Source: Crenarchaeota archaeon 13_1_40CM_3_52_10 (GTDB lineage Archaea; Thermoproteota; Bathyarchaeia; 40CM-2-53-6). From it: DNA of 43,017 nt. The first letter of the stretch is position 1. Every line of letters begins with the position of its first letter. Below, one piece after another: positions 20,937-43,017 of the stretch. The notes beneath the pieces are model-generated. The model was not told the origin of the DNA. It made no database searches and was given only the letters and a program-made list of their open reading frames with translations. The stretch is from positions 1 to 43,017 of the forward strand of contig MNGO01000011.1 in assembly GCA_001918765.1 (NCBI GenBank), read 5' to 3'. The position numbers and the translations under genes were made by a program.

Positions 20937-21051
20937 ACAAGGCAAGACTAGGTTCTGCCCGTCCCAGTCCAAGTTCTACGAACGGACAGGCACGTTACTA
21001 TCACAGTTTAAGAACAAGAAAATGCTCCACCACTGGTGGAGAAAAAATCGA

Positions 21052-22094
21052 TTGTCACAGCAAGCTCCCTGGAATAAGTCACAGAAGTTGCTCACCAAGA
21101 TCGACGAGGAAACAGACCCAGCCTTAGGCTGTCCACCCGAAAAGAGGACGATTGATCAACACATCAGATTCGGCTTGATCAACCTAGACAAGCCCTCCGG
21201 GCCCTCAAGTCACGAGGTCGTAGCCTGGGTCAAACGTCTAATGCGGCTGCATCATGCTGGCCATGGTGGAACTCTAGAGGTCCAGCTTAGGGCCGGAGTA
21301 ATCCAATGGTCACGGGCGTGCTCCCGCTAGCTCTGGAAGACGCTACCAAAACTATCCAGGCATTCCTCCTCACTGGGAAGGAGTACGTCTGCCTCATGAC
21401 AATGCACGGTGACGTTGACGAGACCAGACTCCGCGGAGTATTGCAGGAATTTGTCGGCGAAATTTTTCAGAAACCTCCGGTGAGGGCTGCGGTGAAGAGG
21501 GAAGTCCGGAAAAGAACAATCTATTCCATCGATGATGTAGAGATTGACGGACGCCAAGTTCTGTTGCGTGTCGCCTGTCAAGCAGGAACTTACATCCGCA
21601 AACTAGTCTACGATGTAGGGGAAGTCCTTGAAGTGGGAGCTCACATGCGAGAGCTTCGGAGGACGAGATCAGGATCCTTCACTGAAAAAGACATACACTC
21701 CCTCTACGACGTCCTCAAACTCTCTCAGGCTTCCCCAGACGAAAGAGAAGGGATGGTGCGTCAGATCGTGAGACCAATGGAGGACGCTTTTGAATATGTT
21801 CCGCGGATCTACATTCGTGATTCGGCGGTTAGTTCAATATGTCATGGTGCGGATCTTGCTGTTCCTGGGATAGTCAAGCTAAGCGAGGGCATACGTCCCA
21901 AGACCTCACTTGCGCTCTTCACTCTCAAAGGAGAACTCGTCGCGTTATCAAGAGCCCTCATGGGAACCGAACAGATGATGAAGGATGAACGTGGGCTGGC
22001 TGCGAAGACCGTTAGGGTGATCATGCCGACCGACACTTATCCAAAGCTGTGGAAGCCAAAGCATGCTCGTACAGTAGTGAAGCAATTCAATTGA
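21052..22094 (+). CDS. cbf5: H/ACA pseudouridine synthase Cbf5, interrupted by an intron at 21278-21300
   Basis: Exon 1 LDKPSGPSSHEV..GHGGTL; exon 2 DPMVTGVLP, KEYVC, AGTYIR, MRELRRTRSG and PUA domain. Splicing restores GTLDP. Confidence 0.95.
21278..21300 (+). other. 23-nt mRNA intron with bulge-helix-bulge motif
   Basis: CTCT-AG^A-GGTCC..GGGCC-GGAG-TA^A; removal joins CTA G|AT CCA in frame. Confidence 0.92.
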
Positions 22095-22270
22095 CAAGCT
22101 TGAGCGAGAACAAGGTTACTTTTGTCTGCAACTGCGGGGACGAGATCACAGTCGAGGTCAACCCTGATCAGGAAAATGAGGTTGTATGTTCGAAGTGTGG
22201 CCAGGAATACCGGTTCTTTGGACAAAGCGTGTTGAGATTCAGGAGCAACTCAGAAAACACGGAGCACTGA
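22091..22270 (+). CDS. Small zinc-ribbon protein
   Basis: CNCG...CSKCG; TTG start overlaps the cbf5 stop. Confidence 0.7.
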   Translation: MTSLSENKVTFVCNCGDEITVEVNPDQENEVVCSKCGQEYRFFGQSVLRFRSNSENTEH

Positions 22271-23395: not shown

Positions 23396-23524
23396 GCCGG
23401 GATTCCTGAGCCTGGTACAGGGCAGTCCACTCGAAGAATGTGGGCCTAGGCCTGGAAAAAATAGGCTCCTGTCAGCCTGTGGTCCTTGCGGGCCGCGTGG
23501 GTTCAAATCCCACTCCCGGCGCCA
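23396..23524 (+). tRNA. tRNA-Ser(GGA) with two introns (23426-23449 at 29/30; 23458-23473 at 37/38); CCA encoded
   Basis: Acceptor GCCGGGA/TCCCGGC, G73 and long variable arm. Spliced anticodon arm is CAGGC-CTGGAAA-GCCTG. Confidence 0.92.
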
Positions 23525-24385: not shown

Positions 24386-24423
24386 TGGTGCGGGAGGTGG
24401 GATTCGAACCCACGAACCCCTAC
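24386..24423 (-). repeat. att direct repeat (tRNA-Leu 3' end), identical to 28159-28196
   Basis: 38-bp exact match TGGTGCGGGAGGTGGGATTCGAACCCACGAACCCCTAC. Confidence 0.92.
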
Positions 24424-24695
24424 CCCTTCGGGGAGGAGCTTTTCATTTTCGGTTTTTGACAAAGTTTCTCACTCTAACTACACATCGGCAGGCCAAAAGG
24501 GTTTTGGTAGGAACGAGTGAAGACGGGATTATGAAACCTCAAGCAGAGTCCGCGGTATCCTCGACTTTCTCCACCTTTTTCCGGGTAATGGTCTGGCCGC
24601 TCAGTCGGACCATCCATCCCAGACTGAATCCGATGCCGAAGACTGCGGCACATAGAAGAAAAAGGGTGGTTAGAGAAATGTCTGGCACGTGTCAC

Positions 24696-25355
24696 CTACA
24701 TCCACTGTATTGTGAAAGCACCGAGGCCTATAGTTGCGGTTGTAGTTGGAGGATTTGCATATTCGAGACAATAGTTCCAGTTCTGGAACGTGCTGAAGGT
24801 TTGTAGGCTGCCAAGCGGAATGGCCACCATATACAAGCCACTGTTGGCGGTATTGACATCGCAAGTCTTGTCAGCTACACAGTCATCATTCGCAGAAGTG
24901 CACGGAGCACCGACTTCCTGACCTGCTGGGTAGATGCAAAAGCGGTTTTGGAAGTACTGGACCGGGCCTGTGTAAATTTTGGACATTCCGTCCACCCCTG
25001 TGCACCCGGAGTATCCATTCAAACTTCCAGAGAAAAGAGTAGCGGTCAATTGCGTTGTACCAGCGACCGAGAACGCGGGAGTTGCGCCGAAGTCGGTTTG
25101 GCTACAATCAAAGAAAATAGAAAACCGCGGCATGGGTCCTCCGCCTACGGCGGGATAGAAGGGATTACCGGCCGAATTTGGAGGGGGAAGAACCCCAGCT
25201 CTATTCGAAGTCAGACTGCTACAATTGCTAGTTAGCCCCTTCACTGGCACGTCTGGAGCACTCTGTTTGAATTGGATCCCTATCGCATAGGCGGTTCCTG
25301 CAAGAGAAATCATCAGAAGTGCTAGGGGTGGGAGGTATTTCTTTCCAATTTTCAT
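24696..25355 (-). CDS. Secreted Cys-rich hypothetical protein
   Basis: Signal peptide, SD GGAGGTGA, several Cys. Confidence 0.75.
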   Translation of the reverse strand: MKIGKKYLPPLALLMISLAGTAYAIGIQFKQSAPDVPVKGLTSNCSSLTSNRAGVLPPPNSAGNPFYPAVGGGPMPRFSIFFDCSQTDFGATPAFSVAGTTQLTATLFSGSLNGYSGCTGVDGMSKIYTGPVQYFQNRFCIYPAGQEVGAPCTSANDDCVADKTCDVNTANSGLYMVAIPLGSLQTFSTFQNWNYCLEYANPPTTTATIGLGAFTIQWM

Positions 25356-25479
25356 ATCTATCTTTCACCTCCTTAGGATAACGTTTGGCAATCACCTTGC
25401 AATTTACTGAGGAATATGTTGCAAGAAGCCGATTGCCGAATGATACCTCTGGAAATTTAACACTTTAGATATCTCGGGC

Positions 25480-26829
25480 ATGCCGGTCAAACTTTCAAGA
25501 ACGTTTATCGGGAGCACAAAGAAAAAGCAAGACCCTGTGCTCTTCCTGAAATCTGCACGGTCATTGCTGATTCTGACCCTGTTGATGGTCGTTTCGCTAT
25601 TTGCAGGCGGCGTTGTTCCAGCGAGAGCTTCCAATTTCCAGCCTCACGCACCCATTCTTATTGACGGTAATGGTGGTTTCACCACAGCCAATGGAGTAAC
25701 AGGGGGTAGCGGAACAGCCACGGACCCCTACGTCATTGCGGGCTGGGAGATTGCTTTGGCTCCGTATTTTGGGATACGAATCCAAGGAACCAGTGCCCAT
25801 TTTGTCATCCGGAACGTGTACGTGCATGACGGTGCTCCATCCTCGTATGTTGGGGACTCGGAGGTTTTCGGGGGAATATCCTTAGACGGGGCCCCAAACG
25901 GGGTGGTGGAAAGTGTGACAATCTCGAAGACCAAGAATGCAATTACAGTGTTTCATTCTGAGGACGTGATAGTTAGGAACAACCTTGTAGTGTCCAACCG
26001 CGATGGTATTGGCGTTTTTGGTTCGGGTCATTTGGGTCATATTCATATTCAAATTGTTGGGAACAACGTCTCCTCGAACGGCTTGGGCATTTGGTGTTCA
26101 TTCGCGGCTTGCGTTATTTCGGGCAACAATATCGACCATAACGGCAGTGGCATTGTAGAATACAACGCAGGCGTTGCCATTACGGGCAATATGATATCCA
26201 ACAATGGCGGCGGAGTGTTCGAAGTGAATAGCGCCTTCCCCTTCCACAATAATTTCATCAACAATAAAGTTCGGGGCCAAGCAGATTGTGGTCACATCGG
26301 TAATTGTCATCACACGTGGGATGATGGCTATCCAAACGGAGGCAATTACTGGTCAGACCTTGTCACTGTCGATAATTGCACCGGACCGAACCAAGACATA
26401 TGCACCGGCCCCGACGGAATCGCGGACAAACCCCTCGACATGGGGATTGGGGACTTTATTGACCGATATCCTCTGACCAAACCTTTCGCTCCACTCGTAT
26501 CGGGAAAAGTCAGGTTTGAACCCACTTCGATAACATCCCAAGATACTGGAACGTACTTGACGGCCTTTGTTAAACTCCCTAAGGGATTCGTGAGATCCGA
26601 CTTTGTGTCGTCGAGCATCAGCCTAAACGGGACAATATCGGTAGCAGGTGGCGCCTCTGTAAGCCATTCAAGTGGGGCAGGGGTCTTGGTCGTAAGGTTC
26701 AACATGACACAAGTCAGAGCCTTAATGTCTAAACCTGGTACCTACACTCTGCAAGTTAGCGGGAACCTCCTCACAAACACGAATTTCAGACCATTCGAAG
26801 CTGTTGCAACGGTCCAATTGAGCTTCTAA
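25480..26829 (+). CDS. Secreted NosD/CASH right-handed beta-helix protein
   Basis: HAPILIDGN, GSGTATDPYVI, NNFINN, WDDGYPNGGNYWSD, DRYPL. Start may be downstream. Confidence 0.85.
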   Translation: MPVKLSRTFIGSTKKKQDPVLFLKSARSLLILTLLMVVSLFAGGVVPARASNFQPHAPILIDGNGGFTTANGVTGGSGTATDPYVIAGWEIALAPYFGIRIQGTSAHFVIRNVYVHDGAPSSYVGDSEVFGGISLDGAPNGVVESVTISKTKNAITVFHSEDVIVRNNLVVSNRDGIGVFGSGHLGHIHIQIVGNNVSSNGLGIWCSFAACVISGNNIDHNGSGIVEYNAGVAITGNMISNNGGGVFEVNSAFPFHNNFINNKVRGQADCGHIGNCHHTWDDGYPNGGNYWSDLVTVDNCTGPNQDICTGPDGIADKPLDMGIGDFIDRYPLTKPFAPLVSGKVRFEPTSITSQDTGTYLTAFVKLPKGFVRSDFVSSSISLNGTISVAGGASVSHSSGAGVLVVRFNMTQVRALMSKPGTYTLQVSGNLLTNTNFRPFEAVATVQLSF

Positions 26830-27046
26830 CCCCGTCCGCAGGCTTCAAACAGGATGGGTCCCCTCAATGGGTTCTCTTGGGTTCAATGGGGTGATTGAGC
26901 ACTTTGATGAGCATAAGCGCCAAGATTTGCGCTGGCCAATGACCTTGTTTGGTTGGTCCGGTTTCGATAATGTGATACGGGCATATAGTCAATTATCGGG
27001 ATGATCGGTCAAAGGCAGTTTTGGCCGTGTCGAGGCAGGTAGGCGG

Positions 27047-27184
27047 GTGAGGGACGGTGTCCGTGAAGCGACCGGAACGGTCATTGAGGAAACCGCGGGG
27101 GCGGTTGTCCTTGAAACACGCAACGGACACCGTTTGAAAATTCGCCTCACGGATATCATTCGTCGGAAGACTCTCCGCAATTGA
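27047..27184 (+). CDS. Possible small beta-barrel protein (45 aa)
   Basis: VRDGVREATGTVIEETAGAVVLETRNGHRLKIRLTDII; purine-rich SD-like sequence before the GTG. Confidence 0.35.
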   Translation: MRDGVREATGTVIEETAGAVVLETRNGHRLKIRLTDIIRRKTLRN

Positions 27185-27358
27185 CTCGAACCGTAAATCT
27201 TGGACTTTGCTACTGACCCAAGCGTCTTTTCGCTACTTTCTTGGGTATCCATCTCAGCCAGTGTCCACAGTTGGAACAGTATTCGCCTTTGTGGGGGCCT
27301 CTTGTTCGTATCTCAATGGCGGCTCGCTTATCGCAGAATCTACACTTAGACGAGCGAC

Positions 27359-28096
27359 TCAAAGTTCCTTCGGTCTCTCGAAATAGTAGCTACGCAGGAG
27401 TTCCTCATCTCGCCAGCTATCTCCAACCTTACGCTTGATCTGACCAAGTTCTTTGTTCGTCTTCGAAATGAATTCCTCATGTTCTGCAACGAACCCAACA
27501 AATCTCTCTCGTGCCACATTGTAGTCGGCCCGATAGGTTGGAACAGTCTTCCCCGTACCGGAATCCAATAAGGTTCTGATCTGAACAATTGGTCTTGCTA
27601 CAAGCACATCACGGTAGAACCGAATCATGCTCGATAGCAAGTCAGCAACCCAAACGAAAGCGTTCAGGCTGGGTTTGAGGGTTCTCACTCCGTTCTGCAA
27701 ATCATATGCCAGCATATTCGCATAGTGCGGCTCAACAACCAGCACTGAGTCAAACCCTGGGTTGTTCCTAATGTTGCCAATCACGTACTGAGGATTGTTC
27801 GTCATGTTGTATTCGGTGAACGCTCGGAATCTCTCACAGAATCTCGCAAGCTGGGGGTAGCTTCTGCGGGAATTCCGATTTCTCCGCCATTCTTCATTCC
27901 ATCTTCGAAGTGGCCGATACCAAACCCAGACTACGAAGAGGATGGCTGATGTTCCAACAATCAGAGCCGAGGCAATTTGGACTTCTATCGAAAGATTCTG
28001 TCTTGCACTGAAGAATTGGAGAACGAGCCCAGCCAAGAGAAGAGAGCCGCCGAAGCACTCGGACGGACCGGTCAATACTCGACTCTCGATATCCAT
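27359..28096 (-). CDS. Hypothetical membrane protein (start uncertain; overlaps the integrase remnant)
   Basis: 245-aa ORF with two N-terminal TM segments. Confidence 0.6.
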   Translation of the reverse strand: MDIESRVLTGPSECFGGSLLLAGLVLQFFSARQNLSIEVQIASALIVGTSAILFVVWVWYRPLRRWNEEWRRNRNSRRSYPQLARFCERFRAFTEYNMTNNPQYVIGNIRNNPGFDSVLVVEPHYANMLAYDLQNGVRTLKPSLNAFVWVADLLSSMIRFYRDVLVARPIVQIRTLLDSGTGKTVPTYRADYNVARERFVGFVAEHEEFISKTNKELGQIKRKVGDSWRDEELLRSYYFERPKEL

Positions 28097-28158
28097 TCTT
28101 CCTTAGGTGGAACCCGTATTCCACAACCTTTCCGATAGAAAGTTCGTAGGTTGGGGAA
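27894..28158 (-). pseudogene. Truncated tyrosine integrase N-terminal fragment
   Basis: VVEYGFHLRKNGYRESSIDRSVRVLRRL resembles integrase core-binding helices. The frame is open through the tRNA att site; no catalytic domain follows. Confidence 0.55.
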
Positions 28159-28210
28159 TGGTGCGGGAGGTGGGATTCGAACCCACGAACCCCTACGGGA
28201 CAACTCCCGC
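28159..28210 (-). pseudogene. tRNA-Leu-derived 52-nt minihelix (acceptor, variable and T arms; no D or anticodon arm)
   Basis: GCGGGAG-TTG-TCCCGTAGGGGTTC-GTGGG-TTCGAAT-CCCAC-CTCCCGC-ACCA. Confidence 0.75.
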
Positions 28211-42166: not shown

Positions 42167-43017
42167 GTGCAAGTTCTCGAGAACCGGCCCATCCAGGTCT
42201 ATTCGAAGAAGATCGAGGATGAATACAATCGGCAGTACCTAATCGCGTCAGAGGCCCGGTCCAAAGGACTCGACCCCTCATGGAAGGTCGAATCACAGAC
42301 AACCTATGATCTTGCTGAGCGTGTAGAGAAATCAGTCGGGCCAACCGGAGTCGCCGCTCGAATCCGAGAATTGAGCAAACTAATCTCCCGTGAAGAAACC
42401 GCGCTCAAGATTAGCGAAGACATCGTTCTAGGCCACTTCGGAAGCCTTGAACCTGAAGACGCCGCCGAACAAGCAATTCGTACAGCGCTAGCGGTGTTAG
42501 ATGAAGCTGTGACGGTGGCCCCAATACAAGGAATCCACGACGTCAAGATCCGAACAAACGTGGATGGATCAAAGCACCTAGCCGTCTACTTTGCAGGCCC
42601 AATGCGGGCGGCCGGCGGGACGGAGATGGGCTTGACCATGATCGTCGCCGACTACGTACGTCGACAACTGAACATTCCACCTTATCATGCCTCAGAACAG
42701 GAAGCAATGAGATTCGTCGAAGAACTACGTTTGTACGAGCGATCTATCGCCCGTTTCCAGTATCGGAACCCCGATAGCGTGCTCAAAGACGCGATCATGC
42801 GTCTAACCGTCGAGCCAAACGGAGTGGAAACAGACCCCGTCGAGGTGACGGTCAACCGGAACCTGATGAGGATAGAGACAAACAGGGTCAGAGGCGGAAC
42901 ACTGCGAGTGGTAAATGATGGGCTACTTGGAAGATCAACCAAAGTTCTGAAGATCGTTGAGAAGCTAGGCTTGGAAGGCTGGGGATGGCTGGCCATGATG
43001 AAAACCTCGTCTTCAGA
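42167..43017 (+). CDS. polC: DNA polymerase D large subunit DP2 (3' truncated by window edge)
   Basis: ARSKGLDP, DLAERVE, VAPIQGI, YFAGPMRAAGGTE, RIETNRVRGG. Confidence 0.96.
   Translation, partial: MQVLENRPIQVYSKKIEDEYNRQYLIASEARSKGLDPSWKVESQTTYDLAERVEKSVGPTGVAARIRELSKLISREETALKISEDIVLGHFGSLEPEDAAEQAIRTALAVLDEAVTVAPIQGIHDVKIRTNVDGSKHLAVYFAGPMRAAGGTEMGLTMIVADYVRRQLNIPPYHASEQEAMRFVEELRLYERSIARFQYRNPDSVLKDAIMRLTVEPNGVETDPVEVTVNRNLMRIETNRVRGGTLRVVNDGLLGRSTKVLKIVEKLGLEGWGWLAMMKTSSS

Follow-up and report, generated by a model that had tools for sequence, protein, structure and literature searches.

Cbf5 is the catalytic subunit of the H/ACA pseudouridylation guide ribonucleoproteins. We analyzed a stretch of 43,017 nucleotides (nt) of DNA from Crenarchaeota archaeon 13_1_40CM_3_52_10 (assembly GCA_001918765.1, contig MNGO01000011.1, positions 1–43,017 of the forward strand; the window hereafter), in which the cbf5 gene is interrupted by 23 nt lying inside the codon for the catalytic aspartate. 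We consider it probable (roughly 85%) that this insert (21278..21300, plus strand) is an archaeal bulge-helix-bulge (BHB) intron of the cbf5 pre-mRNA, removed by the tRNA-splicing endonuclease EndA and the RNA ligase RtcB. By its sequence the insert belongs to a type of intron known from crenarchaeal cbf5 genes and sits at the known site; what appears to be new is its presence in a Bathyarchaeia-like, PolD-encoding lineage, in which the insert is the rule and not the exception.

The plus strand between 21022 and 22094 holds two overlapping open reading frames (ORFs) in different frames, 21022–21330 and 21306–22094. Pfam finds a DKCLD domain in the first (E 5e-20) and TruB_N, TruB_C_2 and PUA domains in the second; this is the domain set of archaeal Cbf5, by which the host gene is identified as cbf5. 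Comparison with solved Cbf5 structures located the interruption: exon 1, ending in ...GHGGTL, matched residues 17–81 of chains 2ey4_A and 3lwo_A (E 1.2e-22), the alignment stopping at chain residue 81 of 2ey4_A and 2hvy_A, and exon 2, from PMVTG onward, matched residues 83–334 of chain 2aus_C up to the C-terminus (E 3.6e-81). The two alignments together skip a single residue, between 81 at the end of exon 1 and 83 at the start of exon 2. Reading of the sequence, together with a script for the borders, placed the insert at 21278–21300, between the first and second bases of the catalytic Asp codon. Its removal joins G21277 to AT21301–21302 to give GAT (Asp), followed by CCA ATG GTC (PMV), and restores GHGGTL-D-PMVTG; taking 21279–21301 as the insert would give an identical product because intron and exon 2 both begin with A. 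Exon 1 (21022..21277, plus strand) consists of 85 codons, from the Met to ...GHGGTL, plus the G of the Asp codon, and exon 2 (21301..22094, plus strand) of the AT of that codon, 263 codons (PMVTG... to N) and the stop, so that the spliced Cbf5 would have 85 + 1 + 263 = 349 residues. An earlier sequence-only reading of this DNA had proposed that removing 23 nt repairs the frame between the two ORFs, that the gene is cbf5 and that its catalytic codon is split, and these results bear out all three proposals. The assignment of the insert as a BHB-type intron draws on its sequence, on the computed borders and on a position and phase shared with relatives.

We used a Cbf5 alignment to scan one genome for each GTDB species; this matched at least 601 stretches and confirmed at least 583 relatives, of which the best 80 were kept. 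Similarity to the window decided which 80 loci were taken, so that for lineages other than Bathyarchaeia the survey samples the distribution and is not a census. In each locus a script located the GTL and P.VTG motifs and measured the intervening stretch. This survey of cbf5 in related genomes, which the sequence-only reading had suggested, found the insert in the same phase in 48 of the 80 loci, or 49 of 81 genes when the window is counted, always after the first base of the Asp codon; the other 32 of the 81 genes are insert-free and read GTLDP unbroken. The inserts measure 16 nt (3 genes), 17 (7), 18 (1), 19 (11), 20 (8), 21 (1), 22 (4), 23 (8), 25 (1), 27 (2), 29 (1), 31 (1) and 32 nt (1). 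The nearest loci (L001–L005, 92–94% amino-acid identity) are collinear with the window (~18.3–23.5 kb) at 83–88% nucleotide identity and carry a 23-nt insert at the window's position. The inserts of these five are identical to that of the window at 18–20 of 23 nt, with the differences in the loop or compensated; the loops are of 4 different sequences, with L002 and L003 alike, and the stems are either conserved or carry compensated changes. That five separately deposited metagenome-assembled genome (MAG) records have the 23 nt in the same place, and 48 of 80 loci have an insert there, refutes for practical purposes an assembly or sequencing artefact, a reading for which no point in favour was found.

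Searching with the exon-2 protein listed 120 best relatives (73–94% identity), 110 of which have 260–266 amino acids, corresponding to exon 2 alone, and none the expected ~349. Some of these stand-alone exon-2 proteins (~262 amino acids) are named H/ACA subunit 4 or tRNA pseudouridine55 synthase. Among 21 of the 120 that were aligned there are 7 longer predictions, and GHGGTL is absent from their N-terminal extensions; 5 of the 7 contain PWW[D/N]SR or PWRNSR, which is exon 1 in the wrong frame read through the insert.

In a rival reading the two ORFs would never be joined in RNA, the gene being either a decaying pseudogene or one translated as separate halves that assemble non-covalently, with Glu standing in for Asp. 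In the window's subgroup exon 2 begins near a Met (PM in 18 of 49 genes), hence the 262-residue protein of the gene callers, and the unspliced codon after Leu encodes Glu in 46 of the 49 insert-bearing genes, whose truncated product ends in ...GTLE and a short tail. The remaining 31 of 49 genes, however, have no Met there (PK 18, PP 7, PI 5, PQ 1), so that exon 2 lacks a start codon at that position, and with Met next to Pro in only 18 genes a separately initiated C-terminal half is no general solution. The Glu arises because the AGA bulge described below, followed by a purine, makes GAG or GAA, and is probably a by-product of the bulge sequence; the catalytic Asp is, to our knowledge, invariant in TruB-family enzymes. 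Unspliced translation stops 2 to 46 codons past the Leu in 49 of 49 genes, and an in-frame stop is present in each of the 4 inserts with a length divisible by 3. Against L001–L005 the synonymous divergence (dS) was 0.58–0.99 and the ratio of nonsynonymous to synonymous divergence (dN/dS) 0.03–0.14 in exon 1 and 0.03–0.07 in exon 2. Purifying selection thus acts on both exons, and cbf5 is not a pseudogene. In addition, the insert carries compensatory pair changes and constrains adjacent synonymous sites, which a dead spacer would not do. Altogether, a split or decaying gene is very improbable.

The same frame analysis bears on translational recoding, in which the ribosome would shift frame or hop over the 23 nt and no RNA would be cut. 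Ribosomal bypassing has a precedent in phage T4 gene 60, hairpins are a feature of known bypass sites, and the insert, which is short, forms a stable hairpin. Yet the insert divides the Asp codon 1+2, leaving it undecodable by a hop, the codon preceding Pro in the exon-2 frame of the unspliced window being AAT (Asn) and not Asp; insert lengths of 16–32 nt fall into all three classes modulo 3 and hence fit no single frameshift rule; and the conserved features are those of BHB geometry, not matched take-off and landing codons. We regard recoding as extremely improbable. A self-splicing intron was considered and rejected: the ribozyme core of group I and group II introns takes hundreds of nucleotides, for which 23 nt are far too short, and no Rfam family was matched in the window at gathering scores.

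RNA structure at the junction

Removal of the insert from the transcript as a BHB intron predicts a particular fold around both borders. In the minimum free energy (MFE) fold of 21255–21320 (−25.8 kcal/mol) a central helix of 4 base pairs joins 21272..21275, which is exonic (the last two bases of the Thr codon and the first two of the Leu codon), to 21295..21298, which is intronic, with pair probabilities of 0.965–0.993. On the 5' side it is followed by the bulge AGA (21276..21278), unpaired in the MFE fold, and by the intron-side hairpin h' (21279..21294), which has 5 base pairs (21279–21283 with 21290–21294; probabilities of at least 0.998) and a 6-nt loop (21284–21289); the nine core pairs of central helix and h' have probabilities of 0.965–1.0. 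The 3' bulge, UAA (21299..21301), leads into the exon-side helix h, in which 21267..21270 pairs with 21302..21305 in the MFE fold (A21270:U21302 with a probability of 0.81), and A21271 is left over or paired with U21299. The cut rule for BHB motifs given in section 8 of Yokobori 2009 (PMC2738675, consulted in excerpt) is that cleavage occurs after the second bulge residue; applied here, it predicts cuts after G21277 and after A21300, exactly the borders demanded by the reading frame.

We therefore compared the junctions of the insert-bearing genes with a frame-anchored pairing score, in which the reading frame fixes the cut sites and leaves no freedom of alignment. Among the 46 distinct junctions, 180 of 184 central-helix cells were paired, vs 75–122 of 184 with the 3' partner slid by 1–3 nt, and the first three pairs of h' were formed in 129 of 138 cells, vs 15–64 of 138 when slid in the same way. 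The 5' bulge is AGA in 42 of these 46, and the 3' bulge is A-rich and variable across the family. Counted by gene, the central helix has 4 of 4 pairs in 44 of 49 and 3 of 4 in the remaining 5.

Covariation was analyzed on A2, a MAFFT alignment of 47 junction rows. RNAalifold recovered the intron hairpin unaided, with 11, 20 and 17 sequences changed on both sides of its pairs. After this, the named BHB was tested by pair counting on A2, in addition to the frame-anchored register: 84.0% of its cells were paired, vs 34.7–58.9% in slid registers, and its covariation score was 0.350, vs 0.070–0.125 slid, a value reached by 0 of 500 shuffles. The central helix was 97.3% paired across the family and h' 86.2%, with both-side changes in 4 of the 5 pairs of the latter. 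The second central pair is C:G in 28, U:A in 17 and U:G in 1 of the 46 distinct junctions, and in A2 it goes from C:G (29) to U:A (17) with change on both sides. On the 5' side this pair uses the Thr codon's third, synonymous position, so that covariation links a silent site in the exon to a base of the intron. The helices are kept by compensatory change. The codons of the exonic strand point the same way: the Leu codon is CTA in 47 of 49 insert-bearing genes vs 6 of 32 insert-free ones, and the Thr codon is ACT or ACC in 49 of 49 vs 18 of 32. The exon codons in the motif are constrained only where the insert is present.

Several observations weigh against a BHB intron cut by EndA. By itself, the fold of the window's junction beats chance only modestly (z = −2.0; 8 of 200 shuffles fold equally well), so that the case for a more-than-chance element rests on the comparative data. 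With the 47 junctions of A2, RNAalifold gave the intron hairpin and a small alternative GG/CC hairpin but did not predict the central helix. The exon-side helix is imperfect in the window and only 68.1% paired across the family in A2. A strict hBHBh' motif has two 3-nt bulges and at least 2 Watson-Crick pairs per outer helix, according to a footnote of Schwarz 2020 (PMC7714728, consulted in excerpt), and the energy model suggests that the motif of the window may not be of this strict kind: it favours an extra A21271:U21299 pair (probability 0.91), and with it a 5-base-pair central helix and a 3' bulge of only 2 nt (21300–21301), the conformer with the 3-nt UAA bulge and A21271 unpaired opposite being 1.4 kcal/mol less stable (−22.6 vs −24.0 kcal/mol). 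Relaxed motifs are cut efficiently only by the (αβ)2 and ε2 types of EndA, as excerpts of Hirata 2019 (PMC6379350) state, so the EndA type bears on this point, and no endA gene lies within the window.

The 5' splice site is nevertheless canonical, with central helix, 3-nt bulge and closing helix, whereas the 3' site and the exon-side helix are loose, so that the motif is a slightly relaxed BHB, of a kind covered by the unconventional BHB structures that Yokobori 2009 describes in most species. The description in the sequence-only reading must be amended to this extent. The elements it named are present and the cuts fit the frame, but the motif is relaxed, with a 2-nt 3' bulge preferred by the model; and the GGTCC/GGGCC helix that it called outer exists, but is the intron-side h' and not the exon-side helix, which is weak. 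The looseness of the 3' half would also suit removal of the insert at the RNA level by another endonuclease or by a route independent of the BHB. We judge this improbable: what is conserved here is what defines EndA substrates (a central helix of 4 base pairs, a 5' bulge of 3 nt and cleavage following the second nucleotide of a bulge), and EndA cleaves the crenarchaeal counterparts, as excerpts of Yokobori 2009 (PMC2738675) report.

In the mechanism that we propose, the transcript around 21267–21305 would fold into the slightly relaxed BHB, EndA would cut behind the second nucleotide of the 5' bulge (G21277) and of the 3' bulge (A21300), and RtcB would join the exons to form the GAU codon of the catalytic Asp and an mRNA for the 349-residue Cbf5. 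Unspliced mRNA would give only a 102-residue N-terminal fragment without the active site. We infer splicing, and the existence of a spliced mRNA, from the conservation of the BHB, and EndA and RtcB are the presumed enzymes.

Host lineage and distribution of the insert

The window is archaeal, encoding an MCM C-terminus, EF-1alpha, SecY, many ribosomal proteins and enzymes of the mevalonate pathway. As the sequence-only reading had stated, the lineage encodes PolD: the N-terminal 283 residues of its large subunit DP2 are encoded at 42167..43015 on the plus strand (Pfam PolC_DP2_N, E 2.6e-94), the gene running off the window end. The MAGs of the nearest loci are titled Candidatus Bathyarchaeota in 4 of 5 cases, L005 being a Crenarchaeota archaeon.

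A quick IQ-TREE tree was calculated from the 81 spliced proteins (337 columns; 78 inner branches, 35 starred and 27 open), in which the deep forks are poorly resolved. The window groups with loci titled Bathyarchaeota or Bathyarchaeia in a 45-row clade (98 in the Shimodaira-Hasegawa-like approximate likelihood ratio test), and 41 of these 45 rows have the insert. The four insert-free rows (L022, L025, L033 and L040) all fall in a single subclade whose sisters are two insert-bearing loci (support 94), a pattern that looks like a single precise loss. The second insert-bearing clade consists of Candidatus Culexmicrobium and three MAGs titled Nitrososphaerota (L041, L043, L047 and L065 in all), and the third of four Desulfurococcales MAGs (L049, L061, L066 and L077), whose insert has the phase of the window's. 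Insert-free rows include Methanomethylicaceae/Methanosuratincola (4), Thermoproteales/Thermoprotei (2) and a Thaumarchaeota MAG (L064), as well as Asgard, Euryarchaeota-type and DPANN-titled loci. Three loci with titles from elsewhere, L008 (Candidatus Dormiibacterota), L018 (Terriglobia) and L012 (Candidatus Thorarchaeota), have a Bathyarchaeia-type cbf5 with the insert and are nested in the Bathyarchaeia clade; these contigs are probably mis-binned.

On this tree, presence of the insert needs at least 4 state changes, 2 of them forced by starred branches, whereas shuffled labels average 25. Constraining all insert-bearing rows to one clade, a group named after the tree had been seen, lowered the log-likelihood by 44.1 (p = 0.026 in the approximately unbiased test). 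This result counts weakly against a single gain without loss, and does not settle the choice between one old gain and several gains.

The excerpts of Yokobori 2009 (PMC2738675) that were available describe cbf5 introns of 16–44 base pairs in Desulfurococcales and Sulfolobales, which interrupt the catalytic residue's codon, are flanked by mostly unconventional BHB motifs and are cleaved by EndA, with Aeropyrum pernix and Sulfolobus spp. as examples (Watanabe 2002 and Yoshinari 2006, as summarised there). In the same excerpts the gain is dated to the common ancestor of Desulfurococcales and Sulfolobales, and no cbf5 intron is counted in Thermoproteales, Cenarchaeum, Nitrosopumilus or Korarchaeum. 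The statement of the sequence-only reading that cbf5 introns at this site occur in Crenarchaeota and are cut by EndA agrees with this. The insert resembles these introns in its host gene and its site in the Asp codon, in length (23 nt here and 16–32 nt among the surveyed genes, vs 16–44 base pairs), in flanks that are BHB-like and often unconventional, and in predicted cuts between the second and third bulge residues. It differs in its host, which encodes PolD and whose nearest relatives are titled Bathyarchaeota and not Desulfurococcales or Sulfolobales, and in that splicing has been demonstrated in some crenarchaeal species, whereas here it is predicted. Our literature searches in an open-access library and bioRxiv returned no report of a cbf5 intron outside Crenarchaeota.

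With the BHB introns of pre-tRNA and the BHB sites of pre-rRNA the insert shares two bulges separated by a 4-base-pair helix, and the presumed enzymes, EndA and RtcB. The substrate here is, in contrast, a protein-coding transcript without a tRNA body, and since the exon-side half of its motif is made of codons, coding and RNA structure constrain each other. A BHB in an mRNA that is processed by EndA has also been described for the 5' untranslated region of Haloferax volcanii HVO_1309 (Schwarz 2020, PMC7714728, in excerpt), although that intron lies in an untranslated leader and not within a codon, and belongs to another gene and another phylum. The same excerpt names, as the sole additional archaeal BHB intron reported, the one 'in the cbf5 mRNA in crenarchaeota'.

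The distribution prompts a possible, though doubtful, history, in which the Asp-codon intron goes back to a single ancient insertion in early Thermoproteota/TACK, before the split of Bathyarchaeia, the Culexmicrobium-like clade and Desulfurococcales/Sulfolobales, was kept because it ties the supply of Cbf5, a pseudouridine synthase for rRNA and tRNA, to the activity of the machinery that splices tRNA and rRNA, and was lost several times. The losses that belong to this tentative proposal would be those in the Bathyarchaeia subclade, Methanomethylicia, Thermoproteales and Nitrososphaeria. Dependence of Cbf5 output on splicing capacity would give the intron a regulatory role, an idea that is mentioned for the crenarchaeal intron in the excerpts of Yokobori 2009 (PMC2738675).

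Neighbouring sequences and tRNA-like features

Directly 3' of cbf5, a small ORF on the plus strand (22097–22270) has a CxxC...CxxC pattern; its zinc-ribbon matches are weak and below the cut-offs (best E 0.005). Further downstream on the same strand, 23396–23524 is an interrupted tRNA-like gene. The strands of its 7-base-pair acceptor stem are separated by ~120 nt, and it has a T-arm, a long hairpin in the variable arm and a CCA that is encoded. It was missed by ARAGORN at default settings and by Rfam, its T-arm alone matching the transfer-messenger RNA model (E 5.7e-4). When introns were allowed, ARAGORN assigned the gene to Pro(agg) and placed a 34-nt intron at 32/33, a non-canonical position. 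The call is doubtful because of the long variable arm and the odd anticodon loop; the gene may hold more than one intron. Collinearity of the window with L001, L003 and L005 stops exactly at 23524.

An exact 38-nt direct repeat is found at 24386–24423 and 28159–28196, 3773 nt apart, and its reverse complement resembles a tRNA 3' end, with T-arm, acceptor strand and CCA. L002–L004 have one copy of a matching 44-nt segment, which runs straight into the sequence following position 28201 of the window, and the stretch between the repeats (24424–28158) had no match in L002–L004. This repeat-bounded stretch has the appearance of an element that integrated at a tRNA gene; none of the ORFs within it matched an integrase in Pfam. 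On the minus strand, 28162–28210 matched the tRNA model slightly below the Rfam cut-off (27.1 vs 29 bits), with an acceptor stem and a T-arm but almost no D and anticodon arms, and relaxed ARAGORN made the call Thr(tgt) at c[28159,28242]. A tRNA that is truncated, split or interrupted by an intron may lie here. Also on the minus strand, relaxed ARAGORN with introns allowed proposed at 2729–2909, where there is no ORF of at least 110 amino acids, a tRNA with a good acceptor stem, a T-arm and an 81-nt insert at an unusual position. ARAGORN at default settings and Rfam at gathering scores detected no tRNA gene in the window, and so provided no independent EndA substrate to compare; together with the features above, this accords with a genome that has many unusual tRNA introns.

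Implications for annotation and for the history of archaeal introns

Gene callers give these archaea a truncated Cbf5 of ~262 residues without the catalytic residue. Annotation, marker-gene sets and inferences on metabolism or RNA modification are therefore wrong at this gene for abundant uncultured archaea. The junction is also a clean natural example of synonymous codons under constraint from RNA structure.

Protein-coding genes of archaea very rarely contain introns. A cbf5 intron at the same nucleotide in most of the sampled Bathyarchaeia-labelled genomes and in the Culexmicrobium-like clade challenges the published dating of the gain to the ancestor of Desulfurococcales and Sulfolobales. 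A species tree together with a full survey of genomes can decide between a single old gain followed by losses and recurrent gain at a hot spot. If the single ancient insertion is true, the intron would be among the oldest retained in an archaeal protein-coding gene; if instead it was gained repeatedly and independently at one nucleotide, the exon sequence would be a hot spot for the birth of BHB introns, which would be equally notable.

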